From the IMG/VR virus record IMGVR_UViG_2671180890_000004: a stretch of DNA of 64,000 bases. One strand, 5' to 3'. Both the position numbers and the translations under genes were made by a program. Positions 1 to 40,161 of the stretch are shown here, one piece after another; within the stretch, counting starts at the first letter, position 1, and each line of letters begins with the position of its first letter. Source of the DNA: a virus (lineage: Duplodnaviria > Heunggongvirae > Uroviricota > Caudoviricetes). A model generated the notes under the pieces. That model was not told where the DNA came from and searched no databases. It saw nothing but the letters and a program-made list of their open reading frames with translations.

Positions 1-573
1 TTACATTTCAGGTTGCGTTATGACAGTCCCAACAGGGTGGTAGCGGTAGATCGTTGACAGTCCAATATCATAGATAATTGCCAGCCGCTTTCTGTCATAC
101 CCTTTCTGGAGCAATCTTGCGATCTGCTCATGCTGCTCCTTCGTCAGTTTCGGGCGACGTCCTCCAACTCTTCCTTGTGCTCGCGCAGCAGCCAGTCCTG
201 CCAGCGTGCGCTCAACTATCAGTTCACGCTCCATTTCTGCCAGTGCACCCATCATATGAAAAAAGAACCTTCCCATCGGAGTGCTGGTATCGATTGAATC
301 CGTCAGACTGCGAAAATTGACACCTTTTGCGCGTAGCTCTTCTGTGAGAGCAATGAGGTGTTTCATTCTTCTACCCAACCGATCCAGCTTCCAGACCACC
401 AATGTATCCCCTCTTTTAAGGCACTTTAAAGCGCGTTTCAGGCCTGGTCGTTCCGACTTGGTTCCGCTCATTTTGTCCTCAAAAATCTGTTCACATCCTG
501 CGCACATTAATGCATTGCGTTGCAAATCTGTGTTTTGGTCATTTGTTGACACACGTATGTAGCCAATCAGCAT
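1..573 (-). CDS. Serine DNA invertase, Gin/Pin/Cin/Hin family
   Basis: 190-aa product starting MLIGYIRVSTNDQNTDLQRNAL, with resolvase catalytic N-terminus and C-terminal HTH; start moved to internal Met with upstream AGGGAG RBS; adjacent to invertible tail-fibre region. Confidence 0.9.
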   Translation of the reverse strand: MLIGYIRVSTNDQNTDLQRNALMCAGCEQIFEDKMSGTKSERPGLKRALKCLKRGDTLVVWKLDRLGRRMKHLIALTEELRAKGVNFRSLTDSIDTSTPMGRFFFHMMGALAEMERELIVERTLAGLAAARAQGRVGGRRPKLTKEQHEQIARLLQKGYDRKRLAIIYDIGLSTIYRYHPVGTVITQPEM

Positions 574-635
574 TAAAAATACTCCCTTTTGAGTGGTTAA
601 AGTACTGAGATAATGTGGGGAGGATTTGAGAGATA

Positions 636-856
636 AACGTTGGTTTGGGGGAAGGCTCTGCACTGCCTGTTGGTGTGCCTGTTCCATGGCCCACCGCCAC
701 ACCGCCAGCAGGCTGGTTAAAGTGCGACGGGCGCGCCTTTACAAAAGAACAATATCCTGTTCTGGCCAGAGTCTACCCGACCCTCCGTCTTCCCGATTTG
801 CGCGGTGAGTTTATCCGTGGATGGGACGACGGGCGCAAAGTTGATACGGGGCGTTC
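636..856 (+). repeat. Crossover-region repeat copy A (about 220 bp), encodes conserved GEGSALPVGVPVPWPTATPPAGWLKCDGRAFTKEQYPVLARVYPTLRLPDLRGEFIRGWDDGRK segment
   Basis: Near-identical DNA recurs at about 1150-1366 (direct) and about 2530-2770 (inverted). Confidence 0.6.
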
Positions 857-1148
857 ATTGCTAAGTGGTCAGGCTGCAACATTTATTCGTACAGCTTTGC
901 AGGATTATTACGGTTACGATCTGAATACTAATGTCAAAGTAGGTATCGCTTTTGCTACTGCTGATTCTGTTATAACCGTTGGAAACCCAGCTAATCCTAA
1001 AGCAGGAAATAATAGCGATTATGTTCCTGCATCAGCAGATAACTCTATAACGGGTATTCAAAGGACAGCGGAGGATAATTTTACCGGGGCATGGATATCA
1101 ATGCGCCCCCGCAATGTTGCGTTTAATTACATCGTAAGGGCCGCATAA
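645..1148 (+). other. Promoterless alternative tail-fibre C-terminal cassette (167 codons, intact frame), silent in current orientation
   Basis: ORF begins inside repeat A and ends NYIVRAA like the other fibre C-termini; opposite strand to the fibre constant region. Confidence 0.6.
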
Positions 1149-1149
1149 A

Positions 1150-1366
1150 AACGTTGGTTTGGGGAAGGCTCTGCATTGCCTGTTGGTGTGCCTGTTCCGT
1201 GGCCCACCGCCACACCGCCAGCAGGCTGGTTACAGTGCAACGGAGCTACGTTCACCAAAGAACAATATCCTGTTCTGGCCAGAGTCTACCCGACCCTCCG
1301 TCTTCCCGATTTACGCGGTGAGTTTATCCGTGGATGGGACGACGGGCGCAAGATTGACGAGGGGCG
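1150..1366 (+). repeat. Crossover-region repeat copy B
   Basis: About 217 bp nearly identical to copy A, with one fewer G in the GGGGG run. Confidence 0.6.
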
Positions 1367-1630
1367 TAAGTTGCTTTCATGCAGAAAGGTACACTGGTCG
1401 GCGGTCATGACGATAACGATTCTTCGCTGGATATCTCGTACATGAGTAACGGAAATAATATTGACTATGGCGGCGATAAGGTGTTTGCGGGGAATTACCG
1501 TAGCGATTATTTGTGGTACGCAATTCTGGGTGGAACAAACAGTCGCGCAAAAGCCGAATTAAACGGAGCATTCTTTAACATAACCCGCCCCCGCAATATC
1601 GCGTTTAACTATATCGTGAGGGCGGCGTGA
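1176..1630 (+). pseudogene. Second alternative tail-fibre C-terminal cassette, split across two frames
   Basis: ORFs 1176-1445 and 1379-1630 overlap in different frames; the first carries the conserved crossover peptide, the second ends NYIVRAA; a one-base indel separates them. Confidence 0.5.
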
Positions 1631-1636
1631 TACCGT

Positions 1637-2251
1637 TCAGCTGGCAAGTGCCAGTGGCGCTTCCGGCCAGCTGATTTCAGGTGCCGTGCTGATATCCAGT
1701 GCGTTCAGCTCGTCGATATAATCCAGCACGGCGTTCAGTTTTGCCGTTTCTTCTGGTGTCAGACTGCGACCAGCACGCAGTTTGAGGTTGATAAGATCGA
1801 CGGACGCCATCGCCTGTTTCACCCGTTGCTGGCGTTGCTGTCTGGCAACCTCCAGTTCTGCGGCTCGCTGCCGTTCAGTATCGGTTACCCACGCCTCACC
1901 GTTCCAGGTATCCCATGGCGTGGCCGGCTGTTTTGTGGTGGTGTCCGCCGGGTAATCACCCGGTTGGGTAATCAGAACGGGGTTACCGTTCTCCGTGCTG
2001 TATACCGTCTCGCCGCGGTGATCAGGCACATGCTCCCACCCGTTCAGCGTGGCAGTCCGGCAAACCACGTAACCCGAAATTGCCTCCGGCGGTGCATCGG
2101 CGCACGAATGTGCCGGAGTACCCACCCCAAGGGCGAGATACTCCACAGAGGATGAGGTGTATTCCCGGGTTTCCTCGTCATAGTGATATACAGTGATCTC
2201 GCCCGCTACAGTGGCGATACCGTTTTCATCCAGAACTGCAGTGTTACTCAT
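1637..2251 (-). CDS. Tail fibre assembly protein (Tfa/U-like chaperone)
   Basis: 204 aa directly downstream of the fibre C-terminus on the minus strand; C-terminal LDYIDELNALDISTAPEISWPEAP region typical of Tfa. Confidence 0.8.
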   Translation of the reverse strand: MSNTAVLDENGIATVAGEITVYHYDEETREYTSSSVEYLALGVGTPAHSCADAPPEAISGYVVCRTATLNGWEHVPDHRGETVYSTENGNPVLITQPGDYPADTTTKQPATPWDTWNGEAWVTDTERQRAAELEVARQQRQQRVKQAMASVDLINLKLRAGRSLTPEETAKLNAVLDYIDELNALDISTAPEISWPEAPLALAS

Positions 2252-2730
2252 TAAACTGCCCTCACAATGTAATTAAGTGCAATGCTACGGGGTCTGACAG
2301 TGATACCCTTCGCATACCCGCTTCTGATAGAGGTCAGAATAGTAGCCTGCATACCATTGTCTGACATTGCCACGACAGGATCGCTGAATGTTGTCCCGTC
2401 CGGCATTTTAAAGCTGCCCTCACGAAGGTCTGTAATGGAATCTTCATTGTTGAATCCCATGCCGACTATCCCGAGGTTCCCGTAGTGTCCTGGTTATAAT
2501 AATCCAGCATTGCTGTTCTTAACAGCGTTGCCCTTGTGCGGACAGCAACTTACGTCCTGTATCAACTTTGCGCCCGTCGTCCCATCCACGGATAAACTCA
2601 CCGCGTAAATCGGGAAGACGGAGGGTCGGGTAGACTCTGGCCAGAACAGGATATTGTTCTTTTGTAAAGCGCGCCCGTCGCACTTTAACCAGCCTGCTGG
2701 CGGTGTGGCGGTGGGCCACGGAACAGGCAC
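2251..2730 (-). pseudogene. Receptor-binding C-terminal part of the tail fibre in the currently expressed orientation, broken across three frames
   Basis: ORF track gives three overlapping minus-strand ORFs (2494-2730, 2519-2719, 2251-2460); relative to copy A the repeat here carries two single-base deletions. Confidence 0.55.
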
Positions 2731-2770
2731 ACCAACGGTAGCGCCGAGCCTTCTCCTAAACCAAGGTAAT
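2530..2770 (-). repeat. Crossover-region repeat copy C (inverted relative to A and B)
   Basis: Reverse complement matches copies A and B apart from two single-base deletions and a few substitutions. Confidence 0.6.
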
Positions 2771-4184
2771 TGAGGACATCTTTTATACTGCCCTTAGCGA
2801 TAATAGCGCGACCAATAGCTGTAAGGGTTGCCAGCGCTGCGCGGTCTGCTCCGGTAAAATAAGGCAACCGATCTGCTGCAGTGGCAAGTCCTGCCAGAGC
2901 AGTGAGCGTGGCATCTGCCGGTTGTTTTCCGTTTGCCAGATCGTATGCAGCCTTGACCGCTTTCGGTGTGGCGGCCAGTATTTCAGACGTGCTGTTGATG
3001 GCACTGCTCAATTGTATGGTGCCTTTTGCCGTCAGCGAGGCAGCAGGCACTCCCGTTATCTGACTCCACGGGTGAGTGTGGCTGACGGGCGCCTTGCCGG
3101 CTGCAAGGTCGTATGCAGCCTTGACCGCCTTCGGCGTGGCAGCCTCAGTTTCTGATTGACTGTCCGTGGCGCTGCTCAGTTGTACGGTGCCTTTTGCCGT
3201 CAGCGAGGCAGCAGGCACTCCCGTTATCTGACTCCACGGGTGAGTGTGGCTGACGGGGGCCTTGCCGGCAGCCAGGTCATATGCAGCCTTGACGGCCTTT
3301 GGTGTGGCGGCCAGCGTTTCAGAGGTGCTGTTGGTGGCACTGCTCAGTTGTACGATCCCTTTACGGGTCGTTGTTGCATCCTGGGCTGTGTATTTTCCCC
3401 GGGCCAGATCATACGCGATTTTCACAGCCTTCGGCGTGGCAGCCTCAGTTTCTGATTGACTGTCCGTGGCGCTGCTCAGTTGTACGGTGCCTTTTGCCGT
3501 CAGCGAGGCAGCAGGCACTCCCGTTATCTGACTCCACGGGTGAGTGTGGCTGACGGGGGCCTTGCCGGCAGCCAGGTCATATGCAGCCTTGACGGCCTTT
3601 GGTGTGGCGGCCAGCGTTTCAGAGGTGCTGTTGGTGGCACTGCTCAGTTGTACGATCCCTTTACGGGTCGTTGTTGCATCCTGGGCTGTGTATTTTCCCC
3701 GGGCCAGATCATACGCGATTTTCACAGCCTTCGGCGTGGCAGCCTCAGTTTCTGATTGACTGTCCGTGGCACTGCTCAGCTGTACGGTGCCTTTTGCCGT
3801 CAGCGAGGCAGCAGGCACTCCCGTTATCTGACTCCACGGGTGAGTGTGACTGACGGGTGCCTTGCCGGCTGCAAGGTCGTATGCAGCCTTGACGGCTTTT
3901 GGTGTGGCGGCCAGCGTTTCAGAGGTGCTGTTGGTGGCACTGCTCAGTTGGGTGAACCCCTTAGCTGTCAGTGTCGCGTCCGGGTGGTTACGGGAACGTA
4001 CGTGTTCAGCCAGTGACTGTGCGGCTTCCTCCGTTTTTTTCTTCAGCCATTTCGTCCTGTTTGCCAGTTGCCGGGGGGCTCGATTTGATATCCCGTCAGC
4101 ACCACCCAGAACCGGATCTGATGTCTCCAGTTGATAGATTTTTTCTTCCCACTTTTCTGTTTCATTCAGGTTTCCCATAATCAA
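2685..4184 (-). CDS. Tail fibre protein, constant N-terminal part with tandem fibre repeats; frame ends inside crossover repeat C
   Basis: 499 aa with reiterated SSATxSxSET-AATPKAVK-AYDLA-GK units; translation ends 8 codons after GEGSALP because of a frameshift. Confidence 0.8.
   Translation of the reverse strand: MIMGNLNETEKWEEKIYQLETSDPVLGGADGISNRAPRQLANRTKWLKKKTEEAAQSLAEHVRSRNHPDATLTAKGFTQLSSATNSTSETLAATPKAVKAAYDLAAGKAPVSHTHPWSQITGVPAASLTAKGTVQLSSATDSQSETEAATPKAVKIAYDLARGKYTAQDATTTRKGIVQLSSATNSTSETLAATPKAVKAAYDLAAGKAPVSHTHPWSQITGVPAASLTAKGTVQLSSATDSQSETEAATPKAVKIAYDLARGKYTAQDATTTRKGIVQLSSATNSTSETLAATPKAVKAAYDLAAGKAPVSHTHPWSQITGVPAASLTAKGTVQLSSATDSQSETEAATPKAVKAAYDLAAGKAPVSHTHPWSQITGVPAASLTAKGTIQLSSAINSTSEILAATPKAVKAAYDLANGKQPADATLTALAGLATAADRLPYFTGADRAALATLTAIGRAIIAKGSIKDVLNYLGLGEGSALPLVCLFRGPPPHRQQAG
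2900..3960 (-). repeat. Tandem 300-bp coding repeats in tail fibre gene
   Basis: Antisense ORFs 3156-3455 and 3456-3755 have identical 99-aa translations, so the units are perfect copies; diverged copies flank them. Confidence 0.8.
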
Positions 4185-4771
4185 CTGCTCCCGTGGTTAT
4201 AACTGCCATCATGGATGGCGGTATTGTTATAGCGAATGGCCACAGACTGATACTCCAGGCTGGCCAGATGGCAGCGGGCCGGTGCAAATGCAGCGAGCGT
4301 CTGACGCAGCATCGCGGCCTGATCGTTAGTAATGGGCTGTTTCAGAATAACGCGATAAACCGCCCAGGCGGCTGCATCTCCATGAACAAACAGTCCGTTA
4401 TAGCTGCGATTGCCGTCGTAACTGAGACGACCTGTGCCTTCAATCAGATCCACTTCACCAAAGCCAAAACGGCGGATAACTTCCCGGATTGACCACGGCG
4501 TCCCTTTATACCGGTGTAGTTCGATGGCTGCTTTTATAAGCATGCGGCGAACATCGTCCGATTCCGCCAGCTCCCAGCCATCGCCAGACAGTGAGAACTG
4601 CTCGCCCAGCCATGGCAGCGCAGAACTGTCGACGATATCGACGAGAAAGACCATCAGTACGCTCAGGTCGATGTTATCCAGCCGCCCTGCCAGTCTTCCC
4701 AGCGTCCTGAGACTGATATCACCCTCAAGCGGTGGCGGGAGTTGTAATGGCTCAGTCATCAGACACTCCAC
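4181..4771 (-). CDS. Tail/baseplate protein (P2 gpI-like)
   Basis: 196 aa between baseplate J-like gene and tail fibre gene; size and position match gpI-type proteins. Confidence 0.6.
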   Translation of the reverse strand: MECLMTEPLQLPPPLEGDISLRTLGRLAGRLDNIDLSVLMVFLVDIVDSSALPWLGEQFSLSGDGWELAESDDVRRMLIKAAIELHRYKGTPWSIREVIRRFGFGEVDLIEGTGRLSYDGNRSYNGLFVHGDAAAWAVYRVILKQPITNDQAAMLRQTLAAFAPARCHLASLEYQSVAIRYNNTAIHDGSYNHGSS

Positions 4772-25768: not shown

Positions 25769-26119
25769 TTAAAGCCCCATCGCAACAGCCAGACAGACCG
25801 CTGCAACAATCAGTGCACGGCGGATTAACGCAGCAGAAAACACCAGGTGAAGGCCGGTCTGTACCGGGAAACGCCCATCAGCCATCAGCCTGTCGTCATG
25901 TTTCAGGTACTGACCGGGACGGGCTTTGGGGAAGAGCGAACGGTCAAGCCAGTAACCCAGCACTGCTGCCAGCGTGATGAGTGCCAGCTTGTAGATCACA
26001 ACAGGCAACTGCTGTGGCGAGACCAGAGCGATGGTGCCCAGCAACAGCACTGAGGTCAGCAGCCAGCCGCTGAGGCGAGGTTTTTTAACAGGGGGAATGA
26101 ATTTTTTCAGGTTTTTCAT
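25769..26119 (-). CDS. Putative holin (three predicted TM helices)
   Basis: Directly upstream of endolysin gene; start at MKNLKKFIPP uncertain. Confidence 0.5.
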   Translation of the reverse strand: MKNLKKFIPPVKKPRLSGWLLTSVLLLGTIALVSPQQLPVVIYKLALITLAAVLGYWLDRSLFPKARPGQYLKHDDRLMADGRFPVQTGLHLVFSAALIRRALIVAAVCLAVAMGL

Positions 26120-26249
26120 GTGTGTCTCCTTGTCTGGTGGAGACAGCATCACAAATACAGGGCGCGAAGGATTTTAAAGCGCGTTAAGAGAGCCGGGGAT
26201 ACGGGATGTGCAGGATAAACGATGAATTATTCACAGAGGAGAATACGAT

Positions 26250-26993
26250 ATGACGCAGACACTGAATCCGGTCATCACTGTCACCGTGTCCGGTCCTGTG
26301 GGCAGCGGTAAAAGTTACATATTGGCGCGGATAGAGGAAGTGGTGAAACAGGAATTCGGGGGCAGCGTCATTGTCGATGCTGCAGACGTAGATGATGAGC
26401 GGCGTATGAGTGGCGATGATCTGACGACCTGGCAGAAGCCACGGGGTGGCACAGTGATCAGGCTGGAGGAATACACGGGACAGGGCCTGTTGTCATACGG
26501 CGAGGAGCGTATCTGTCGGACGAATGAGCTGCTGGATGTTATATGCCCCACGGGCCGGCAACCCTGGATACTGCCCGATGCACTGCATGCCACCATTGCG
26601 GCACTGATGACAGTTTACGATCAGGAGCTGCTCATGAAGGAGCTACGTAAACTCACCGGTCAGCCAACAGAATGTTTTTCTGCCCCGAAGTACGGGAAAC
26701 AGGAACACATCCCGGTGAACACGCTCCCCGTTAACCAGCCTCCCCGGTTCTTCGACGAATACATTCTGACACCGGAAAATAAAGCTGAGCACGAAGAGAT
26801 CAAAGCGGCGTTGTTCCGGGAAATCAGGAAGATTGCTGAAATGCAACTGGGGGGCGGGCTGGACAGAGTGATGGCGAGAGGAGAATGGGAGTCGCTGTTT
26901 GAAAGAGTTTCCCCGGAATTACTTCCCCTCGCACTGGCTATCGGGATTATGCAGACAGCGGATAAACCTCACTTACGTTCATTAAACACGTAA
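26250..26993 (+). CDS. Hypothetical protein with N-terminal Walker A (P-loop) motif
   Basis: 247 aa; VTVSGPVGSGKSYIL followed by VIVDAADVDDE; no wider family recognised. Confidence 0.5.
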   Translation: MTQTLNPVITVTVSGPVGSGKSYILARIEEVVKQEFGGSVIVDAADVDDERRMSGDDLTTWQKPRGGTVIRLEEYTGQGLLSYGEERICRTNELLDVICPTGRQPWILPDALHATIAALMTVYDQELLMKELRKLTGQPTECFSAPKYGKQEHIPVNTLPVNQPPRFFDEYILTPENKAEHEEIKAALFREIRKIAEMQLGGGLDRVMARGEWESLFERVSPELLPLALAIGIMQTADKPHLRSLNT

Positions 26994-27373
26994 CGCATAA
27001 TCCGGGATACGCATTCAGCGATGACTGCATTTTCACCGGTTTTTACTGCATCCAGAAGTGACTCTTTAAATGGTGCGGGCCGGGGCTGCAGAAGGGTCGG
27101 CGTGGCATTGAGCAGACGGAGCGTTTTTTCCGTGAGGACGACATCAGCCGCTCCCACAGCCAGCAACTGAGAGTAACGAATATAGCTGTTATCCCGAAGC
27201 CATATCAGCGTATCAATAAAATACCGGCACTTTTTCTGGTCGTGATCAACCTGGTCCGGGATATCGAAAAAACCAGAATAAATCAAAACCTGAGGTGCCG
27301 GATGCGTGTTCAGTAATCGGCAGAATATTTTGCCGGTGAGTGCATAAAAATCATCATTTAAGGAGTGCATCAT
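26969..27373 (-). CDS. Hypothetical 134-aa protein, convergent with P-loop gene
   Basis: ORF only; overlaps P-loop gene 3' end by 25 nt and shares a CATG with the divergent start of the next plus-strand ORF. Confidence 0.3.
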   Translation of the reverse strand: MMHSLNDDFYALTGKIFCRLLNTHPAPQVLIYSGFFDIPDQVDHDQKKCRYFIDTLIWLRDNSYIRYSQLLAVGAADVVLTEKTLRLLNATPTLLQPRPAPFKESLLDAVKTGENAVIAECVSRIMRYVFNERK

Positions 27374-27587
27374 GAATCCCCGATTAACGTTAACAGAACA
27401 TCAGCGCCGTGCTGAAGCAGTGAACAATGTTCTGGAAGATATTATCCGGTTACATCGCGGAGAACTGAGTGTCTGTCGTGCCGCTTTTCATTTTCAGGGA
27501 ATACAAAAGCAGTTTGATACTTCTGTTTTTGCAGAAGGTATTACTTATGCCCTGGACCGGATAAGGTCAGAAAATCGCCCCGGATAA
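27372..27587 (+). CDS. Hypothetical 71-aa protein
   Basis: Small ORF upstream of Dam-like gene. Confidence 0.3.
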   Translation: MNPRLTLTEHQRRAEAVNNVLEDIIRLHRGELSVCRAAFHFQGIQKQFDTSVFAEGITYALDRIRSENRPG

Positions 27588-27778
27588 TCCCTAAACCACA
27601 TTAACAGAAATCCCACTATCCCTGCCGCATCATGAAAGAACGACCAGCCCGGTGCTTCGGACCCACCGGGCTGGCCATCGTCCCACAGAAGTGGCTGTGA
27701 GCCGACCGAGGTTCAGTCAGTCTCGCGAGACCAGACTAGCCTGCCATATTTTTAATAATTGTAAAAGGCTTACAGATT

Positions 27779-28543
27779 ATGAAAATGAAGACATTACCCA
27801 TCGTTCCATGGATTGGTGGCAAACGTCGCCTGGCAAAACACATCCTGCCGCTGTTTCCGGCGCATGAATGTTATGTGGAGCCGTTTTGTGGGGCAGCAGC
27901 GCTCTATTTTCTTAAGACACCCGGCAAGATCGAAGTCATCAATGATATCAACGGTGAACTGGTGAATCTGTACCGGGTGGTAAAGCATCACCTGGAAGAA
28001 TTTGTCCGCCAGTTCAAATGGGCGCTGGTCAGCCGTCAGATCTACAAATGGCTGCAGATCACCCCGGAAGAAACACTGACGGATATCCAGCGTGCGGCAC
28101 GGTTCTACTACCTTCAGAAGCAGGCGTTTGGCGGCAAGGTGGCAGAGCACAGCTTCGGTACCTCCACCACATCCCCGCCACGCTTCAACCTGCTGCGTAT
28201 TGAAGAAGAACTGTCAGCAGCACACCTGCGGCTTTCCAGAACAGTCATAGAACACATGGACTGGCAACAGTGCATTGAGCGTTATGATCGTCCGCACACA
28301 CTGTTCTACTGCGACCCACCGTACCTGGGTACGGAAGGCTATGGTGTGGATTTTCCTGAAGGGAACTACTCGCGGCTGGCAGAGCTGGCCCGGTGCATCA
28401 GAGGAAAAATGATAATTTCGGTGAACGATATCCCACAGATGCGCGAGGTGTTCACTGGACTGAACATACAGACAGTGAACATCAACTACAGTCTGGCGGG
28501 GAAATCTACGCCGCGCCGTGAACTGGTAATCTGCAACTTCTGA
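27779..28543 (+). CDS. dam: DNA adenine methyltransferase (Dam family)
   Basis: 254 aa with N-terminal PWIGGKRRL, FCGAAA and DPPY catalytic motif. Confidence 0.85.
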   Translation: MKMKTLPIVPWIGGKRRLAKHILPLFPAHECYVEPFCGAAALYFLKTPGKIEVINDINGELVNLYRVVKHHLEEFVRQFKWALVSRQIYKWLQITPEETLTDIQRAARFYYLQKQAFGGKVAEHSFGTSTTSPPRFNLLRIEEELSAAHLRLSRTVIEHMDWQQCIERYDRPHTLFYCDPPYLGTEGYGVDFPEGNYSRLAELARCIRGKMIISVNDIPQMREVFTGLNIQTVNINYSLAGKSTPRRELVICNF

Positions 28544-28552
28544 AACAAAACC

Positions 28553-28590
28553 GGAAAGCACAATGCTTTCCGGTAAACCAAACAACTTCC
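28553..28590. terminator. Bidirectional hairpin terminator between convergent Dam-like and repressor genes
   Basis: Perfect inverted repeat ACCGGAAAGC-ACAAT-GCTTTCCGGT. Confidence 0.5.
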
Positions 28591-28659
28591 ACTATGTCAC
28601 TGGCGATGTTTTCTGAAAGCATCCAGATCAACCACCTGTCCTTTGTGTCCAGGTCAAAA

Positions 28660-28998
28660 TCAGCCTGCGAGTTTGCTTGGTTTGGGTTGAATGAAGACTT
28701 TGCCGACCTCAAGAATTGCCCTCCGTTGTTCGGGGCTCATTTCGTCGAATGCATCCATTAACTCTTTCTTTTCTTGTGACACATAAGGTGCAACAACAGG
28801 CTGACTCCGCACCCCAGTAACTACATACAAAATATCTACACCGATTTCTGATAGTGCAGATAACTGCACTGCAGTAGGAGAAGTGCGATCTTTTTCCCAA
28901 TCAATGAAAGTTCTCTTTGCCACACCTATAGCATCAGCCAACCCTTGCTGTGTAAGAGATAGACGCTCTCTTTCTTCTTTAATACGTAACCCGATCAT
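28660..28998 (-). CDS. Phage repressor (HTH, XRE-type), Mu c analogue
   Basis: HTH segment LSLTQQGLADAIGVAKRTFIDWEKD; divergent from Ner-like gene across a 100-bp region; start moved to MIGLRIKEER. Confidence 0.65.
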   Translation of the reverse strand: MIGLRIKEERERLSLTQQGLADAIGVAKRTFIDWEKDRTSPTAVQLSALSEIGVDILYVVTGVRSQPVVAPYVSQEKKELMDAFDEMSPEQRRAILEVGKVFIQPKPSKLAG

Positions 28999-29098
28999 GT
29001 GAGTTTTTCTGCACTCTTTAAGTTGACTGGTGAGGTAATCTGCACCATAATCTATCACACATAAGGCAAACATCATTGCATCAACAAAGGAGACAACG

Positions 29099-29287
29099 AT
29101 GACTGCAGAACAAGTCAAAGCTCTCTTCCGCCAGCGCGGGATCACTTTCACCCGCTGGGCAGAAGAAAACGGCTACAACCGCAATGAGGTATACCGCGTT
29201 CTCAATGGGCAGACCAAAGCCCGTTACGGTAAATCCCATGAAATCGCCGTGAAGTTGGGGCTGAAATCAACAGCTCAGGCAGCCTGA
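29099..29287 (+). CDS. Ner/Cro-like small DNA-binding protein
   Basis: 62 aa HTH protein, first gene of early operon, divergent from repressor. Confidence 0.55.
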   Translation: MTAEQVKALFRQRGITFTRWAEENGYNRNEVYRVLNGQTKARYGKSHEIAVKLGLKSTAQAA

Positions 29288-29333
29288 AGATTTTGAGTCT
29301 TTGTAAAAGGTTATCACATATCGCAAAAGAGGT

Positions 29334-29648
29334 ATGCAGATGAGTAAGACGAATGTTTCAAGCTCCGGCAGTCGCATCCTCCGGGTACTCAAAGCGCTGC
29401 GCGGTCATGCCCTGAACGGTATTTCCAACGGTGAACTGGCGGCAGCACTGCACGAGTCACCGGCAAACATCAACCGGGCACTCAACACCCTCATTGAAGA
29501 AGGGTTGGCCCTGAAACTGGAAAACGGGCGTTTCGCGCCGGGCATCCAGTTACTGCAGATCGCTATGGCCCACAGTAACGAGATGGCACGTGCACAGGAT
29601 CGCATTAACGAAATCAACCAACGTGTCATTTCAGGTAGTCGTTTGTAA
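29334..29648 (+). CDS. Winged-helix transcriptional regulator-like protein
   Basis: 104 aa with HTH-like ISNGELAAALHESPANINRALNTLIEEGL. Confidence 0.45.
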   Translation: MQMSKTNVSSSGSRILRVLKALRGHALNGISNGELAAALHESPANINRALNTLIEEGLALKLENGRFAPGIQLLQIAMAHSNEMARAQDRINEINQRVISGSRL

Positions 29649-29658
29649 GGAGTAATAA

Positions 29659-30570
29659 ATGGGACGCACCAAATCACCGATTAACACTGAACTGAACGCC
29701 GAGGTACCGCTGTCGGATGATCTCAATGTCAGTCTGAACGCCATGACACAGCATCGTATGGAGATCATGCAGCAGTTTGGCGATGGTCAGCCCTATGAGC
29801 GTGATCGCATAGTTCATGAGGCTCGGTTTTATATGGCACAGAGCGCTGAGGCCATGCTGGAAGCAGGTAAACGACTTATTATTCTCAAAGAAAATGAACC
29901 TCACGGGGACTTTGTTGGAATTGTAGAAGAACAACTTGGTCTGCATGTGCGCGCAGCACAACGAATGATGAAAGCATCTTTGAAATACCTTTCACCAAAA
30001 CTAGAGCCAAAAGCGACAACGTTGTCGCTTTTAGGTAAGGCAAAATTATTTGAACTTGTTGCTGAAGATGACGACGACCTTGCTGAACTGGCCGACGGTG
30101 GCACAGTTGCCGGACTGACGCTTGACGATGTTGATCGCATGTCAGTACGTGAATTGCGTCAGGCCCTGCGCGAAGCGCGCGAAACCAACGCAGCACAACA
30201 GCGCGTACTCGCCGACAAAAATGAAAAAATAGACTCACTCTCCACCAGACTGGAGAAGAAATCCCGTATTCAGCCACCTGAGCCTGATGAAGAGGTGAAG
30301 AAACTGCGGGCAGAAGTGACCGCGTTAGCGGTTGAGGCGGAATCTGCCATCGCCGTTCGACTGTCCAGCGCTTTTGAGACGCTGTGCGCATATTGTGCTG
30401 AAAACATGATTGATACCCCCAGAGACTTCATGGCGGGCCTGGTCTGTCAACTGGAAAGCACAGCGCGTAGCCTGCGCTCCACATTTGACCTGCCGGACGA
30501 GCCAACAGGCAATGCAGCGCCTTCATGGCTGACTGAGCCGACGCCACAGATTAACGGGCTGGAGGCATAA
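29659..30570 (+). CDS. Hypothetical early protein, coiled-coil rich
   Basis: 303 aa immediately upstream of transposase. Confidence 0.45.
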   Translation: MGRTKSPINTELNAEVPLSDDLNVSLNAMTQHRMEIMQQFGDGQPYERDRIVHEARFYMAQSAEAMLEAGKRLIILKENEPHGDFVGIVEEQLGLHVRAAQRMMKASLKYLSPKLEPKATTLSLLGKAKLFELVAEDDDDLAELADGGTVAGLTLDDVDRMSVRELRQALREARETNAAQQRVLADKNEKIDSLSTRLEKKSRIQPPEPDEEVKKLRAEVTALAVEAESAIAVRLSSAFETLCAYCAENMIDTPRDFMAGLVCQLESTARSLRSTFDLPDEPTGNAAPSWLTEPTPQINGLEA

Positions 30571-30573
30571 CCA

Positions 30574-32343
30574 ATGAATGCTGCCCTGACTGAACGACTG
30601 GTTTATGTCGCCCGCGCGGCACGTGACGCGGGGCATGGTAAACGCGGCGCAGTATACGACGCTGCCTGTGCTGAACTTGGCATGTCCCGCGCCACTCTGC
30701 TGCGCAGGCTGAAGGAGGTATCTGTGACTGATAAACGCAAAAAACGCGCCGATGCCGGGCGCAGCGCCCTGACCCGCGACGAAGCCGCGCTGATATCTGC
30801 CACACTGCGTGAGGCCACCCGCAAGAACGGTAAGCGTCTCTATTCCATCGCGGATGCAGTGGAAACCCTGCGGGCTAACGGCTTTATATCCGCAGGCAGA
30901 ACAGATGAAACCACCGGTGAGTTTTTCCCGTTGTCCGAAGATGCCATCAGCCGAGCCCTGCGTAACTATGGCCTGCACCCGGAACAACTGGATGCCCCTG
31001 CGCCGCATACCGAAGTGGCCAGTCTGCATCCCAATCATGTCTGGCAGATTGACGCCTCACTCTGCACGCTTTACTACCTGAGCAATGGACATAAAGGGCT
31101 GCAGGTGATGGACAGCGCGAAGTTCTACAAGAACAAGCCCGCTAACCTTGCCCGTATCGCCAGTGACCGCGTGTGGAGTTACGAGATTACCGACCATGCC
31201 AGCGGCTGGATTTACGTTGAGTATGTGACGGGCGCGGAATCAGGTGAGAACCTGTGTTCTGTGCTTATCAACGCCATGCAGGAGCGTGGCGGCGCAGACG
31301 TGCTGCACGGTGTGCCGAAAATACTCTATCTCGACCCCGGCTCGGCAAACACCGCGGGTATGACGAAAAACATGTGCCGCTCACTGGGCATCGACCTGAT
31401 AGCGCACAAGCCGCATAACGCCCGCGCCACCGGACAGGTGGAAAAGGCGCGGGACATTATCGAACGCAAGCTGGAGCCGGGTCTGAAGTTCCGGCCGGTT
31501 CACAGTCTGGAAGAACTCAACGCGCTGGCCGCGAAATGGCGCAGCCACTTTAACGCCACGGCTGTTCACAGCCGCCACGGTAAAACCCGCACGGATATCT
31601 GGCTGAAGATTACTGCTGAGCAGCTGAAAAAAGCGCCTTCCGTTGAGGTATGTCGTGAACTGGCTGTGGCGGCACCAGAACTCCGCAAAGTCACGCCAAA
31701 ACTTCGTGTCTCGTTCCGGGGCACTGAATTTGACGTATCAACGGTACCGGGCGTACTGGTTGGTGAAAAACTGATGATTACCCGTAACCCGTGGCGCAGC
31801 GATGTGGCACAGGTGGTTCTGACCGGTGAGGACGGCCACGAGACGTTCTTCCTGGTCGAAGAGGTCAGAAAGAACGAGTTTGGCTTTGCTGAAGGCGCGG
31901 CGGTATTTGGCGAAAGTTACAAAGCCCTGCCGGAAACCCCGGCGCAGATGGCGGCAAAAGAAACCGAAGCGCTGGTCACCGGTACAGACAACGCCGCAGA
32001 TGCAGCTGCCGCACGCAAGGCGAAGGCGCTGCCGTTCGGCGGGCGGCTTGACCCGTATAAACATATCGACGACACCACACTTCCGGCCTATATGCCGAAG
32101 CGTGGTCAGGCCTCTGACGTACGCGGGCCGCGCACTGAACAACGTCCCATGACTTATGTGGAGGCCGCGAAAGCCCTGCGCGATAAGTTCAGCGCCAACG
32201 GCTTTACCTGGACGCCGGAACATTACCGCCAGTTAACGGCACAGTATCCGGACGGCGTACCGGAAGCCGCACTGGATGAAGTCATGGCCACGCTGACCAC
32301 GCCGGCCCGCAGCAGCGTTATCAGTATTGTTAACGGCAACTGA
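30574..32343 (+). CDS. DDE transposase (phage transposase A analogue, integrase-core type)
   Basis: 589 aa with candidate DDE residues in HVWQIDAS and LYLDPGSANT; followed by AAA+ B-like gene. Confidence 0.8.
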   Translation: MNAALTERLVYVARAARDAGHGKRGAVYDAACAELGMSRATLLRRLKEVSVTDKRKKRADAGRSALTRDEAALISATLREATRKNGKRLYSIADAVETLRANGFISAGRTDETTGEFFPLSEDAISRALRNYGLHPEQLDAPAPHTEVASLHPNHVWQIDASLCTLYYLSNGHKGLQVMDSAKFYKNKPANLARIASDRVWSYEITDHASGWIYVEYVTGAESGENLCSVLINAMQERGGADVLHGVPKILYLDPGSANTAGMTKNMCRSLGIDLIAHKPHNARATGQVEKARDIIERKLEPGLKFRPVHSLEELNALAAKWRSHFNATAVHSRHGKTRTDIWLKITAEQLKKAPSVEVCRELAVAAPELRKVTPKLRVSFRGTEFDVSTVPGVLVGEKLMITRNPWRSDVAQVVLTGEDGHETFFLVEEVRKNEFGFAEGAAVFGESYKALPETPAQMAAKETEALVTGTDNAADAAAARKAKALPFGGRLDPYKHIDDTTLPAYMPKRGQASDVRGPRTEQRPMTYVEAAKALRDKFSANGFTWTPEHYRQLTAQYPDGVPEAALDEVMATLTTPARSSVISIVNGN

Positions 32344-32353
32344 GGAGGGAAAC

Positions 32354-33520
32354 ATGCTGGTACTGAAGCAGCAACTGAAAGAAGCCCGTATTCCACAGGC
32401 GGTGGTGGCGAGAGCTGTCGATGTTTCTGAGGCCACGCTGGCCCAGATTGTGAATCATAACGCGTGGCCCCGCACCAGCCCCGGAGAAGTGCGCCGGCGT
32501 CTTGCGTCCTGGCTGGAAAGTCAGGGGATTGATACAACGAAGAGTTTTGATGCTGTACAGGGCGCGGCCACGCCCCGTACAGCGGGTACCACAGATAAAA
32601 CGAGCCTCAGTGAGGAAGAGAATATGTTACTCAAAAAACAGGTGTTATTTCCAGCAACCAAAAAAGCGTTTGGTCTTTTCCGTGACCCGTTCGCCGACGA
32701 AGCCATGCAGGGTTCTGATGATGTGTTCACCACCCCGGATATTCGCTACGTGCGTGAGGCGTTGTACCAGACAGCCCGTCATGGTGGGTTTATGGCCGTC
32801 ATCGGTGAGTCCGGTGCGGGTAAATCCACGCTGCGCCGCGACCTGACTGAACGTATCAACCGCGAGAATGCGCCGGTAATTGTTATCGAGCCATACATCA
32901 TCGCTATGGAAGACAACGATGTGAAAGGGAAAACCCTGAAGGCAGCAGCGATTGCCGAAGCCATTATCAGTACCATCGCACCACTGGAAAGCATCAGACG
33001 CAGTCAGGACGCCCGCTTTCGCCAGTTGCATCGCGTCCTGAAAGACAGCAGCCAGGCGGGGTTCAGCCACGTTCTGGTGATTGAGGAGGCCCACAGTCTG
33101 CCCATTCCGACACTGAAACACCTCAAACGCTTTTTTGAGCTGGAGTCCGGTTTCAAAAAACTGCTGTCCATCGTGCTGATTGGCCAGCCGGAACTGGCGA
33201 CAAAACTGTCTGAACGCAATATGGAAGTCCGTGAAGTCGTTCAGCGCTGTGAGGTGGTCGAACTTCTGCCTCTGGACAATAACCTTGAAGAGTTTCTGAC
33301 GTTCAAACTGCAACGGGCCGGTAAACAACTGACGGACATTATGGACGCCAGCGCAGTGGATGCCATACGTGCCCGCCTGAGCAATCCGGGAAGTCATCGT
33401 AAAAATATGGTCAGCCTGCTGTATCCGCTGGCCGTCAGTAACCTGGTAATAGCCGCCATGAATCTGGCCGCTGAAATCGGGGTTCCACAGGTCAACGCTG
33501 ACGTTGTCAAAGGGGTTTAA
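32354..33520 (+). CDS. Transposition ATPase (MuB/IstB-like AAA+ with N-terminal HTH)
   Basis: Walker A AVIGESGAGKST; start set at Met after GAGGAGGG RBS. Confidence 0.75.
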   Translation: MLVLKQQLKEARIPQAVVARAVDVSEATLAQIVNHNAWPRTSPGEVRRRLASWLESQGIDTTKSFDAVQGAATPRTAGTTDKTSLSEEENMLLKKQVLFPATKKAFGLFRDPFADEAMQGSDDVFTTPDIRYVREALYQTARHGGFMAVIGESGAGKSTLRRDLTERINRENAPVIVIEPYIIAMEDNDVKGKTLKAAAIAEAIISTIAPLESIRRSQDARFRQLHRVLKDSSQAGFSHVLVIEEAHSLPIPTLKHLKRFFELESGFKKLLSIVLIGQPELATKLSERNMEVREVVQRCEVVELLPLDNNLEEFLTFKLQRAGKQLTDIMDASAVDAIRARLSNPGSHRKNMVSLLYPLAVSNLVIAAMNLAAEIGVPQVNADVVKGV

Positions 33521-33522
33521 TA

Positions 33523-33792
33523 ATGAAATCCACCACAGGTATCAACCAGCAAATCAGCAAAGTGCAGTCAGCCATTATGGCGCTTAAGGCGACGAACACG
33601 GATGTACAAAGCATCACCATCAGGGGTAACAAACCTGTCATCCGCGTTTCCCGGAGTGCGCATTGCATGCGCATGCTTGAGCAGGGAAAGGCCTGTTATC
33701 TGTATACCGGTCATGACCACAGGGGACATTTCCGTCAGGGCGTTTTCGAACTGCACGGCTGTCGCGTCGTGTGGCCGGAATCTTTGTGGTAA
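33523..33792 (+). CDS. Hypothetical 89-aa early protein
   Basis: ORF between B-like and Gam-like genes. Confidence 0.4.
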   Translation: MKSTTGINQQISKVQSAIMALKATNTDVQSITIRGNKPVIRVSRSAHCMRMLEQGKACYLYTGHDHRGHFRQGVFELHGCRVVWPESLW

Positions 33793-33819
33793 TCAGCACA
33801 ACAGGAGGAGTCATAAAAT

Positions 33820-34350
33820 ATGGCAAAAAGTACAAAAGGGGCAAAACGTATCAAAGCCGCAGCAGCACTCTGGGTGCCGGGGACACGCGAAGAGGTCATT
33901 GAGGGAATCAGACTGCTTGGTGACGCGCAACGTGAACTGGTCAGGGCTGAAACAGAAATGAATGACACCATTGGCGACATCACCGCACGTTATGCCCCGC
34001 TCACCGAGAGCCTGAAAAAACGCATGGCCGAACTGCAGTCCGGTATTCAGACATGGTGTGAGGCACACCGTGATGAACTGACCGGCAACGGGAAGGTGAA
34101 GTTCGCTAACCTCACCACCGGCGAGGTGCAGTGGCGAAACCGTCCGCCGTCAGTCAGTATCCGTGGGGCGGATAATGTTATTGAATTACTGAGACGTCTG
34201 GGGCTTGAGCGCTTTATCCGTGTAAAGGAGGAAATAAATAAAGACGCCATCCTGAATGAAAAGGACGCCGTGAAAAATATTCCCGGTATTACCATAAAAA
34301 GTGATATTGAGGATTTTTCAATAATTCCTTTTGAGCAGAATGTGCAGTAA
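33820..34350 (+). CDS. gam: Gam-like host-nuclease inhibitor (DNA end-binding)
   Basis: 176 aa, size and position as Mu Gam. Confidence 0.65.
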   Translation: MAKSTKGAKRIKAAAALWVPGTREEVIEGIRLLGDAQRELVRAETEMNDTIGDITARYAPLTESLKKRMAELQSGIQTWCEAHRDELTGNGKVKFANLTTGEVQWRNRPPSVSIRGADNVIELLRRLGLERFIRVKEEINKDAILNEKDAVKNIPGITIKSDIEDFSIIPFEQNVQ

Positions 34351-34446
34351 AAACAGCATATAAGCTATTTAAAACAGCCTTTTCTTTTTTATTCCGGCAT
34401 CAGCGCCGTGGGCTTCTGCACGCCGGAAACAGAGGAGAATTAAATC

Positions 34447-34641
34447 ATGATATTTAAATGTATTCAGTGCGAGAGGGATATAACAGCCCTGCGTTTTCAC
34501 AGCGCCATCGCCGTGATGTCCGGTAAGTACCACGTACCTGCAGTACGCGTCACCCTGGTCTGTCCGTACTGCAGTCAGCATTTTTCGGCAGACGTGCCCG
34601 TCATGGAATTCTCCCGCCCTGACAGGGAGGACTCGCAATGA
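34447..34641 (+). CDS. Small zinc-ribbon-like protein
   Basis: 64 aa with CxxC...CPYC cysteine pairs. Confidence 0.4.
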   Translation: MIFKCIQCERDITALRFHSAIAVMSGKYHVPAVRVTLVCPYCSQHFSADVPVMEFSRPDREDSQ

Positions 34642-34910
34642 TTACCCCACAGGAAGCACGACAGCGCACCCGAACCCTTGTTGAACACTATGTCAACGAG
34701 TGTGAATGCCGCGACCTCACCGATGTGAAGCACGTCCTGACGGCGCTAATCAGCATGACCGCTCAGGCCATTGTGGCGACCAACGGAAAGGCGGCTGCCC
34801 TGCAGGTACTGGTGAACACACTCACCCACACGGCAGAGCACGATGTGCCGTACCGGATGGAAACCACTGCAGAAGGCGGCCTGAACATCACCGTCGACCG
34901 GAAACACTGA
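34638..34910 (+). CDS. Hypothetical 90-aa early protein
   Basis: ORF, start overlaps previous stop. Confidence 0.4.
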   Translation: MITPQEARQRTRTLVEHYVNECECRDLTDVKHVLTALISMTAQAIVATNGKAAALQVLVNTLTHTAEHDVPYRMETTAEGGLNITVDRKH

Positions 34911-34919
34911 GGGCGCGGC

Positions 34920-35225
34920 ATGACACGGAACACCGAACTCACCCGCACCGCCCTCTACCGTCTGGCCCTGCAGCGTTTCGGGCCGGACGCACAGGCCCTG
35001 AAACTGACAGAAGAGGCCGCTGAACTGGCGGCCAGTGCCGCCCGCAACCTGAACGGACAGGGCAGCGAAAGTGACCTCGCGGCAGAGCTGGCAGACGTGG
35101 AAATCATGACAGAGCAGCTGCGCCTTCAGGGAATGGACCGGCTGATTGACTTCCACAAACAGAAAAAACTGGAACGCCTTGCCGCACGGCTGGGCGTCAT
35201 GTACACCGGAGATACTGAACAATGA
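34920..35225 (+). CDS. MazG-like nucleotide pyrophosphohydrolase domain protein
   Basis: 101 aa with acidic EEAAELAASAARN...AAELADVEIM helices typical of small MazG-like enzymes. Confidence 0.55.
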   Translation: MTRNTELTRTALYRLALQRFGPDAQALKLTEEAAELAASAARNLNGQGSESDLAAELADVEIMTEQLRLQGMDRLIDFHKQKKLERLAARLGVMYTGDTEQ

Positions 35226-35905
35226 CAGACCAGGATAAACACATTGAGAAACTGAAAAAGTTGCTGGCGCTGGCCGCATCCGGCAACCCTCACGAGGCCG
35301 CTCTGGCACTGCGCCGTGCCCGTAAACTGATGGATGTTCACGGCATCACACATTCCGACATCGCCATGAGTGATATTGATGAAACCATCAGTCACTACTG
35401 GCCGACAGGCAGCCTCCGTCCACCGCGCTACATGCTGGGCCTGATGAACATCATCCGCGAGGCATTTGGTGTTAACTCCATCATTCACCCCGGCACATAT
35501 CCGGGTGTGGGGTTCTACGGCAACCGGGAACGGGCTGCACTGGCTGCGTACACCTGGGAAGTGCTGGCCCGCCAGCTGAAAAAGGCGCGTCAGCAATATA
35601 TCAGCGCACAGAACAAAAGAATAAAAACTGCCACCCGTACCAGCCGTGGTGACCAGTTTGCTGAAGGCTGGGTGCTGGCCGTTATCAGTGAAATACAGTC
35701 CTTCGCCCTGACCGATGACGAACGTGAACTGATGCAGCAGTGGCTGGAACATAAATACCCGCAGACGCAAACCACCAGGGCGCGTAAACCGGGAAGAAGC
35801 CGCAATGGCGACGCCTCGCGCTATGCGGGGTTTCTTGAAGGGCAGAACGTCAGACTGCACCGCCCGGTCAGTGGGCAGGAACAACAGAAACTGGAGGCCA
35901 GATGA
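35222..35905 (+). CDS. Hypothetical early protein
   Basis: 227 aa, N-terminal KLKKLLALAASGNPHEAALALRRARKLM helix pair. Confidence 0.4.
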   Translation: MTDQDKHIEKLKKLLALAASGNPHEAALALRRARKLMDVHGITHSDIAMSDIDETISHYWPTGSLRPPRYMLGLMNIIREAFGVNSIIHPGTYPGVGFYGNRERAALAAYTWEVLARQLKKARQQYISAQNKRIKTATRTSRGDQFAEGWVLAVISEIQSFALTDDERELMQQWLEHKYPQTQTTRARKPGRSRNGDASRYAGFLEGQNVRLHRPVSGQEQQKLEAR

Positions 35906-36132
35906 TTACGCTATCAGGTAAAAGCCGGAAATTAAAAGCCTGCCGAATATCTGCCAGATACCTTTTTGCCCGCGCCTTTTTTAAGAACGTCAGGCCGGGG
36001 ATCACAATTGGTGTTATTGCCGGACGCGAACAGGTTGAAAAATACATGTCAGGTGCATGGTGGAATAACGACCCTGTCATTGCTGCCCGTAATATTCATA
36101 TCAGTTGGGGGGATATTCAGAATGACGGCTGA
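35902..36132 (+). CDS. Hypothetical 76-aa protein
   Basis: ORF only. Confidence 0.3.
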   Translation: MITLSGKSRKLKACRISARYLFARAFFKNVRPGITIGVIAGREQVEKYMSGAWWNNDPVIAARNIHISWGDIQNDG

Positions 36133-36337
36133 ATCTGTTGTATGTGCCCTGTTCTGGTATTGTTTTGTCGGTTGGTGTACTGCTGAACTGCACCGCCGTT
36201 CAGGGTTTTATTCACGTTACAGTGGTGCTGGCTACTGGATTAGCTGGTCGGTGATGTTCCTGTGCTGGCCTGTGGCGCTTCCTTTATATGTCGATTATAT
36301 CGGTGGCGCAGGTAAAAGGAGCAACGATGATGACTAA
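36122..36337 (+). CDS. Small membrane protein
   Basis: 71 aa with two hydrophobic segments. Confidence 0.35.
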   Translation: MTAESVVCALFWYCFVGWCTAELHRRSGFYSRYSGAGYWISWSVMFLCWPVALPLYVDYIGGAGKRSNDDD

Positions 36338-37149: not shown

Positions 37150-37189
37150 TTCCTGCTTGTTAAAGTCCTTTCAAAAATCTCCTTATTGT

Positions 37190-37230: not shown

Positions 37231-37263
37231 CTCTCTTTAGTATTCAGGATGCAGGGAGAAAAT

Positions 37264-40154: not shown

Positions 40155-40161
40155 TCTCCAG

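Follow-up and report, generated by a model that had tools for sequence, protein, structure and literature searches.

The G segment of phage Mu (Gin/gix) has relatives in the C segment of P1 and the P segment of e14. Going by description only, the Min system of plasmid p15B also resembles the locus studied here: an invertase of the same family acts at more than two sites on overlapping segments and shuffles the 3' ends of tail-fibre genes. Six sites are present in the Min system, which has many more isomers and belongs to a P1-related plasmid. This multiple-inversion system was described by Sandmeier et al. (1990; cited in PMC5903667 and PMC4134206). Inversion in prophage Phi2 of the Escherichia coli ST131 strain EC958 showed up directly in an alternative PacBio contig (Forde et al. 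2014, PMC4134206), and a P2-like prophage of EPEC E2348/69 has three 215-bp repeats, for which PCR confirmed that four variants coexist (Goldberg et al. 2014, PMC4272514).

The DNA analysed here, called the window, is the 64,000-nucleotide stretch of IMG/VR record IMGVR_UViG_2671180890_000004. Its region 636-2770 is a three-site, four-isomer tail-fibre inversion locus with three C-terminal cassettes (A, B and C) and one tfa gene. Taken jointly with the reading of its small deletions as artefacts (see below), it is very probable that the element is a transposable Mu-like E. coli prophage and that the region is a host-range switch. This kind of switch is already described, and both the layout and the prophage are known. 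The features of the locus are as follows.

1-573, minus strand: serine DNA invertase gene of the Gin/Pin/Cin/Hin family, 190 aa (Pfam, PHROG and PDB matches)
628-653, plus strand: crossover site s1, GAGAGATAAACG-TT-GGTTTGGGGGAA, junction of the invertase-side flank ("P head") and cassette A, with the TT core at 640-641
642-1148, plus strand: cassette A, with collar domain, variable tip and conserved C-terminal RPRNVAFNYIVRAA (open reading frame, Pfam Collar)
645-862, plus strand: repeat copy 1, the part of cassette A coding for the collar domain
1142-1166, plus strand: crossover site s2, CGCATAAAAACG-TT-GGTTTGGGG(G)AA, junction of the 3' end of cassette A and cassette B, with the TT core at 1154-1155
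1155-1630, plus strand: cassette B, silent in the window isomer, with deletions at 1160 (G5 to G4) and 1380 (GG to G)
1158-1375, plus strand: repeat copy 2, the part of cassette B coding for the collar domain
1637-2251, minus strand: tfa, the tail-fibre assembly chaperone gene, 204 aa, only copy (Pfam Caudo_TAP, PHROG 105)
2251-2763, minus strand: cassette C, fused to the constant part in the window (isomer I), with deletions at 2736, 2668, 2530 and 2469
about 2541-2736, minus strand: repeat copy 3, the part of cassette C coding for the collar domain
2751-2776, minus strand: crossover site s3, TCCTCAATTACC-TT-GGTTTAGGAGAA, junction of the constant fibre part and the expressed cassette, with the TT core at 2763-2764
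2764-4178, minus strand: constant N-terminal fibre part (Sc), without any difference from the near-identical prophage L001

The original prediction, made from the sequence of the window, described three copies of a repeat of about 220 bp, two direct and one inverted, encoding a common fibre segment. This agrees with what we found: the direct copies are 90% identical, the inverted copy is 92-97% complementary to them in two arms split by one 1-nt register shift, and every one of the three encodes the Pfam Collar domain PF07484. The Gin-family invertase expected beside the repeats is indeed present, as are the three alternative C-termini with a single tfa (the only Caudo_TAP gene in the segment), and the prediction was also right that the system is multi-site and exceeds the two sites of the Mu G segment (three sites here, with four isomers known). 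However, the 220-bp repeats, which had been taken as the crossover sites, do not have this role, since each repeat has at its 5' edge a 26-bp element that is the actual site.

The first position of the window coincides exactly with the stop codon of the invertase gene. The protein starts with MLIGYIRVSTNDQ and has an N-terminal resolvase domain, with the active-site serine in a YxRVST motif, and a C-terminal helix-turn-helix (Pfam Resolvase, 8e-51; HTH_7, 1e-12) within the approximately 190 aa usual for the family. It matches PHROG 125 (DNA invertase) and, over its full length, the solved structure of Mu Gin (PDB 4m6f/3uj3, E of about 1e-93), to which it has 72% amino acid identity. Members of this family carry a Fis-bound recombinational enhancer in the 5' part of the invertase gene; here, identity to gin in the first 210 nt of the gene is 73-83% per 30-nt window, versus 68% overall. 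We infer from the family that this invertase would catalyze the inversion and would depend on Fis and an enhancer. A shufflon of the R64 Rci type, in which a tyrosine recombinase acts on sfx sites in pilV, was considered and rejected, the enzyme here being a serine invertase and the target a phage fibre gene.

The three sites share ...AC[GC]-TT-GGTTT[GA]GG[GA]GAA, with TT as the central dinucleotide in each; s1 and s2 are in direct orientation and s3 is inverted, and s2 is 25 nt long in the window, with one G missing at approximately 1160. Mu likewise has 26-bp sites with this GGTTT half-site, a crossover inside the fibre gene that swaps C-termini, and an invertase gene adjoining the segment. 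It differs in having two sites and two cassettes, with a mirror-image pair of chaperone genes (U and U'), against three sites, three cassettes and a single tfa in the window; the core dinucleotide is TC in Mu, and the fibre tips of the window are of the collar-domain type. With only three sites, on a chromosomal Mu-like prophage, the locus falls outside the Min type of p15B.

Phi2 of EC958 is a prophage of the same Mu-like family with an identical invertase protein (WP_000904922.1), identical s1 and s3, an identical cassette C and the gene order invertase, A', B', tfa, C, constant part. In PMC4134206, s1 is tabulated for EC958 as the 26-bp crossover site "Phi2_3prime" and s3 as "Phi2_5prime", and s1-s3 all fit the invertase crossover sites and the consensus given there. 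Phi2 differs in its A' and B' tips, which are 37-47% identical to A and B (tip region), and in its chromosomal position, next to aroA. We also found in Phi2 a third site, which is not listed in the 2014 description (PMC4134206). The EPEC E2348/69 module is similar in having three homologous repeats of about 215 bp beginning ...TTGGTTTGGGGGAAGG, two overlapping inversions with one common end, four isomers, three C-termini, a single tfa in convergent orientation to the middle cassette, and, next to the locus, an invertase with 86% identity to that of the window; its locus (L009) carries the same three sites. Like that module, the window has two direct and one inverted repeat, each headed by a site, with four isomers and three in-frame C-termini. 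The EPEC element is, however, P2-like rather than Mu-like, and its tips and tfa show 23-40% (tip region) and 59% identity, respectively, to those of the window.

In the proposed mechanism, the Gin-type invertase encoded beside the segment would recombine the three 26-bp sites with their common TT core. Site s3 lies inside the fibre gene, and s1 and s2, in the opposite orientation, each precede a silent C-terminal cassette; inversion between s2 and s3 (1.6 kb) or between s1 and s3 (2.1 kb) would thus exchange the cassette joined to Sc, with four isomers and three alternative fibre tips as the expected outcome. All four predicted isomers are present in near-identical prophages of complete E. coli genomes (I in L001, II in L012, III in L011 and IV in L004). 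The Sc-C fusion is intact in L001 (643 aa), the Sc-B fusion is intact, for example, in L012, and the Sc-A fusion is in frame, for example, in L011 and L004; the fusions of Sc to A, B and C are all open once the sequence of the window is corrected. With 680-nt junction probes, we found Sc-A in 75, Sc-B in 87 and Sc-C in 283 of 5,426 complete E. coli genomes, and all three junctions in the genome of GN04979, at three separate loci (H93, H126 and H155). Queries with whole isomers were rejected for this census, because joined same-strand pieces would give false positives between isomers I and IV. Again jointly with the artefact reading of the deletions, we regard three-site inversion by a site-specific invertase as very probable, and inversion of this copy in its own host is predicted. 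A variant that has no cassette A also exists (L006).

Compared with L001, positions 1-4200 of the window contain six 1-nt deletions, two in cassette B (1160 and 1380) and four in cassette C (2469, 2530, 2668 and 2736), and zero substitutions. The original prediction had noticed two 1-nt deletions inside the repeat that split the expressed cassette C (at 2736 and 2668), as well as the frameshifting of a second cassette, which is B; both observations proved correct. The deletions at 2530 and 2469, just outside the repeat, were absent from its list. All six are in G/C runs, within about 300 nt of s2 and s3, and at or just past positions that differ between B and C. Apart from these six, no difference from RefSeq genomes occurs in 29 kb, and several genomes match the following 24.8 kb with 100% identity. 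For all six to fall by chance inside one 1.58-kb span of these 29 kb, the probability is approximately 3e-6. Of 61 G/C runs, 7 overlap a B/C difference, and these 7 hold all three deletions that lie inside the repeats (P of about 0.0015); the other three follow the point of B/C divergence by about 6-76 nt. In an ungapped chromosomal alignment of 18.2 kb there were no indels, and in a further 5.1 kb there was no homopolymer deletion in the window.

The deleted allele was absent from the best matches among the 5,426 complete genomes, exact-pattern scans of genome, metagenome and viral collections gave no doubly deleted allele, and an exact look-up of the truncated 497-aa fibre product gave no match. 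The intact allele was found in eight viral contigs, and was not found among species-representative genomes. Because of the clustering, the G/C runs, the coincidence with B/C-differing positions and the absence of the allele elsewhere, the six deletions are most likely consensus or polishing errors rather than true mutations. The likely cause would be the mixing, at s2 and s3, of reads with B and C tails, possibly because the culture was heterogeneous in isomers, because copies of the prophage were present in different states, or because reads cross-mapped between the repeats. The placement of the deletions at B/C-differing positions is the one hint that isomers may coexist within a single clonal culture.

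An alternative, which we consider improbable, is that the six deletions are genuine and that this prophage copy is decaying, with B and C as pseudogenes and the fibre produced from the Sc-A isomer only. The deletions are present in the given sequence, decay does occur in prophage genes, and some RefSeq annotations (EC958 and B36) show this fibre gene in pieces. However, decay would have to yield six frameshifts versus zero substitutions in 29 kb, every one of them in a G/C run of a single 1.58-kb span, at or next to B/C-differing positions, and an allele missing from the best matches in the complete genomes and from the other collections; we know of no mutational process that fits such a pattern. 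We also considered whether the fragmented annotation in EC958 reflects similar indels and rejected this, as 1,790 nt align ungapped and the fragmentation is in the tandem-repeat part. In Sc of the window, this type of sequence consists of tandem repeats of about 300 nt at 2935-4002, which encode Phage_fiber_2 repeats. The earlier suggestion of a fibre disabled by genuine frameshifts was therefore not borne out, six clustered G/C-run deletions, unmatched elsewhere, being the sole differences in 29 kb. Restoration of the frame by recombination, which it had also envisaged, holds in part. Cassette A is silent in the window isomer, yet its reading frame is intact, and s1 x s3 inversion joins it to the intact Sc; thus, even the uncorrected window would give a full open reading frame for a 642-aa fibre. 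Cassettes B and C are beyond such repair, because their deletions are in the tails that move.

The arrangement of polymorphisms in the four isomers bears on the type of recombination. RecA-dependent homologous recombination between the 220-bp repeats, with the invertase being incidental, is very improbable as the source of the rearrangements, although repeats with 90-97% identity are long enough for it and the L006 variant could be a deletion between the direct repeats. In all four isomers, tail-specific polymorphisms from 5 nt past the core onward travel with the tail, and the head-specific left half-sites, up to the core, stay in place; therefore the exchange point is within the 7-nt TTGGTTT at the site centre in every isomer, as seen in the hybrid sites of II, III and IV. 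Furthermore, the sites agree with the consensus for invertase crossover and with those published for Phi2 (PMC4134206). Least credible is the possibility that only the outer sites s1 and s3 are active and s2 is a relic, in line with the two sites and single 2067-bp segment given for Phi2 in PMC4134206, since isomers II and IV require exchange at s2 and carry hybrid s2 sites, which already refutes it, Sc-B junctions occur in 87 genomes, EC958 itself has a third site, and the small inversion was directly measured in EPEC (PMC4272514).

Biologically, this is a host-range switch of the textbook type, and little would change even if all of the above were confirmed. The practical lesson is for genome scanning: where homopolymer frameshifts cluster only within an invertible segment that bears repeats, consensus errors from mixed or cross-mapped reads should be suspected first, and such clusters can even serve as an indirect sign of segment heterogeneity in the sequenced culture. 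Two points go beyond the published papers, namely the third site of EC958 Phi2 and the presence of one tfa for three tips, which is conserved between Mu-like and P2-like hosts and unexplained.

The product of the single tfa matches PF02413 (3.5e-28) across residues 79-199, as expected of the Tfa family, and is annotated as a tail fiber assembly protein in RefSeq. The start of tfa overlaps the stop of cassette C (TAATG), and in isomers II and III the gene is antisense to the fibre operon. A scan of 400-2900 for a promoter driving tfa or the invertase-side cassette, which omits Mu-type late promoters, gave no promoter or terminator above shuffle expectation and no sigma-70-like promoter for tfa. 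The chaperoning of tips A and B is unexplained because of this antisense position and the lack of a sigma-70-like promoter, and the literature examined does not treat how one tfa serves them. It is possible, though rather doubtful, that the one tfa serves the whole three-way switch in spite of being antisense in isomers II and III. Every tip consists of the common collar domain, a variable part of about 90 aa and a common C-terminal RPRN[IV]AFNYIVRAA motif. One reading is that tips A and B need no co-expressed chaperone for folding, or else that Tfa acts on them through the common collar and this motif, with tfa expressed from an unrecognized promoter. The other is that infectious particles would come from isomers I and IV only, part of the switch space being a dead end. 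In tblastn searches of phage genomes with tips A and B, only the collar domain carried matches, at about 50% identity. These searches were aimed at close homologues that have no downstream tfa; the related fibres in HK97 and HK106 do have a tfa after the fibre gene.

The tail-fibre locus has three crossover sites of 26 bp (s1, s2 and s3, each with a central TT as its core) and three alternative C-terminal cassettes, or tails (A, B and C). Its features are as follows.

Features of the tail-fibre locus in the window
1-573, minus strand: serine invertase gene (190 aa), at the left end of the window
628-653: site s1, GAGAGATAAACG-TT-GGTTTGGGGGAA
642-1148, plus strand: cassette A
1142-1166: site s2, CGCATAAAAACG-TT-GGTTTGGGG(G)AA
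1155-1630, plus strand: cassette B
645-862 and 1158-1375: direct repeat copies, 90% identical
1637-2251, minus strand: tail-fibre assembly gene tfa
2251-2763, minus strand: cassette C, continuing into the constant part of the tail-fibre gene (to 4178)
about 2541-2736: inverted repeat copy, 92-97% complementary, with a one-base register shift
2751-2776, minus strand: site s3, TCCTCAATTACC-TT-GGTTTAGGAGAA
beyond the constant fibre part: P2/Mu-type baseplate genes

Resolvase and HTH_7 domains were identified in the invertase, which matches the solved Mu Gin (E about 1e-93; 72% identity). The three repeat copies of about 220 bp that had been predicted were recovered by a repeat finder, and each encodes a Pfam tail-collar domain. 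The features described in the original prediction are thereby confirmed. When the three repeat regions were aligned in coding orientation, the homology was found to begin with an element of 26 bp on the 5' edge of every repeat. These elements are hix/gix-type sites. Because the central TT falls in the codons ...CTT GGT..., an exchange there would swap everything from GLGEGSALP... onward. The 220-bp repeats themselves were rejected as crossover sites; they make up the conserved beginning of each movable cassette. The constant fibre part contains Phage_fiber_2 repeats, seen as tandem repeats of about 300 nt (2935-4002) whose copy number differs among genomes. This stretch is exactly 300 nt shorter in several RefSeq matches (H12-H16) and shorter still in B36 and EC958, where the annotation is fragmented.

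Three heads (Sc, the constant N-terminal fibre part; P, the flank on the invertase side; and the 3' end of A) would be joined to the three tails, and inversions between s2 and s3 and between s1 and s3 would produce four isomers. All four are present in complete E. coli genomes, in near-identical prophages.

Isomers and their junctions
I: Sc-C, P-A, A3'-B; the window and Esc31 (L001)
II: Sc-B, P-A, A3'-C; EC11 (L012)
III: Sc-A, P-C, A3'-B; DA33135 (L011)
IV: Sc-A, P-B, A3'-C; FDAARGOS_1303 (L004)

The left half-site is head-specific and remains with its head in every isomer, and the tail-specific polymorphisms, from 5 nt past the core on, all move with their tail; thus, the exchange is confined to TTGGTTT. 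This restriction, seen in all isomers, points to site-specific recombination as their source and speaks against homologous recombination within the repeats. The Sc-A, Sc-B and Sc-C fusions are all open reading frames in the corrected sequence. With 680-nt probes against 5,426 complete genomes, the Sc-A junction was found in 75 genomes, Sc-B in 87 and Sc-C in 283, and GN04979 has all three at separate loci (H93, H126 and H155). The multi-site inversion proposed in the original prediction is supported. A two-site variant of the same prophage lacks cassette A (L006, NZ_CP029747.1, 2128-3768), and cassette B is attached there, at the site, to the flank on the invertase side with nothing in between. 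The variant either arose when the DNA between the direct sites s1 and s2 was deleted or is the ancestral two-cassette form.

The inversion system is already known, since both the element and the three-site architecture have been described. Forde et al. (2014, PMC4134206) described the Mu-like prophage Phi2 of E. coli ST131 strain EC958, in which an alternative PacBio contig revealed inversion of a segment with sites in a 227-bp imperfect inverted repeat. The two 26-bp sites listed are identical letter for letter to s3 and s1 of the window, the gene order is the same, and a middle site, GGCATAGAAACGTTGGTTTGGGGGAA, is also present in the EC958 sequence. In EPEC E2348/69, Goldberg et al. (2014, PMC4272514) reported a P2-like prophage locus in which two inversions overlap and three homologous repeats of 215 bp are present. 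It has three alternative C-termini and four variants, and PCR confirmed that all four coexist. That locus has the layout of the window (fibre-X, Y, convergent tfa, Z, invertase) and the same site half GGTTTGGGGGAA, with an invertase 86% and a Tfa 59% identical to those of the window. Cassette C is identical in EC958 and the window. However, the EC958 A' tip region is 94% identical to EPEC X and only 37% identical to cassette A, which implies that tip cassettes move between Mu-like and P2-like prophages. EPEC X is the expressed tip of its P2-like prophage. Cassette sets differ between otherwise near-identical prophages (EC958, L007, 1052-1958; EPEC, L009, 1684-2129).

The original prediction also suggested that frameshifts may disable the fibre unless recombination restores the frame. 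Compared with the closest RefSeq genome (Esc31), positions 1-4200 differ only by six single-base deletions, all in G or C runs, with zero substitutions.

Single-base deletions in the window
1160: G5 to G4
1380: GG to G
2469: C4 to C3
2530: C4 to C3
2668: GG to G
2736: G3 to G2

These are very probably an artefact. Several genomes match the following 24.8 kb of the prophage at 100%, in length as well as in sequence; the chromosomal and second-prophage part aligned to a related genome without gaps over 18.2 kb and, over another 5.1 kb, without a homopolymer deletion in the window. The probability that six random events in 29 kb all land within one 1.58-kb span is about 3e-6. Each of the three in-repeat deletions lies in a run overlapping a B/C difference (7 of the 61 G/C runs; P ~0.0015), the remaining three are located about 6-76 nt past the divergence point of the B and C tails, and none was found in cassette A, tfa, the 3' part of B or the constant part. 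A consensus assembled at s2 and s3 from reads with mixed B and C tails would be expected to show such a pattern. These reads could come from isomers I and II together in the culture, from an assembler's collapse of several prophage copies that differ in state, or from cross-mapping between repeats during polishing; a similar effect was described for EC958 (PMC4134206). Real decay of the cassettes is improbable: neither the truncated product nor the doubly deleted allele turned up in any other collection, whereas the intact allele did. Even the literal sequence can give an intact fibre: joining Sc and A at the s3 and s1 cores of the window as written gives a 642-aa open reading frame ending in NYIVRAA. 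Cassettes B and C are beyond repair by inversion, because the deletions sit inside the moving tails. Several contigs of the IMG/VR viral collection with an intact s3 region (L013, L014, L018) measure only 4-6 kb. The match lies near the contig end in L014 and, roughly, in L018, which fits assembly breaks at an invertible, repeat-rich region.

The single tfa for three cassettes, as predicted, is conserved in the window, EC958 and EPEC, where it always adjoins the middle cassette and is convergent with it. This arrangement is the only part of the finding left unaddressed by the cited papers, and it poses a modest question. The gene, the sole chaperone gene of the locus, encodes a Caudo_TAP protein. 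Tfa proteins are described as binding the fibre through an N-terminal domain that varies and trimerising through a C-terminal domain that is conserved (PMC9608196). The Tfa of the window is about 58-61% identical to that of EPEC over its whole length, whereas the tips adjoining tfa are only 24% identical, and all cassettes share the collar domain and a C-terminal RPRN[IV]AFNYIVRAA. Since Tfa is conserved along its length while the tips differ and the cassettes share their ends, one chaperone may plausibly recognise the parts common to all cassettes. By geometry, tfa points the same way as the fibre operon in two isomers (I and IV) and is antisense to it in the other two (II and III). A promoter scan found no sigma-70-like promoter for tfa.

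The prophage (1 to about 38000) is a transposable Mu-like phage, since it has Mu-type genes (rve-type transposase, AAA_22 ATPase, Mu Gam, GemA, Mu-type portal) and many different insertion positions, adjoining or interrupting malE, ssuB, fabI, yfaL, barA, aroA, sfaC, gspL or yqhA, depending on the genome. Near-identical copies occur at many chromosomal positions (L001-L007, L011, L012), with several copies in some genomes; GN04979 has at least three, with a different fibre isomer in each. Position 1 of the window coincides with the final base of the invertase stop codon; the prophage boundary observed in other genomes is about 75 nt farther out. The plus strand carries the early genes (methyltransferase, transposase, ATPase, Gam, GemA; 26000-38000), including a D12-class adenine methyltransferase (27779-28543), and the minus strand carries the late structural genes (1-25800); unlike the colinear layout of Mu, the two blocks diverge from the prophage middle. 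Copies in ST131 and other lineages match the prophage at 100% identity, while the chromosomal gabT-gabD-lhgO-glaH stretch (39001-44096) is only about 95.8% identical to the complete E. coli genome that covers it best; the host may belong to a divergent Escherichia lineage and have gained the prophage recently. A second, lambdoid prophage (about 44500-64000), with integrase, RusA, Q antiterminator and lysis genes, has a counterpart in strain QA-1986 83 at 98.8-99.7% identity.
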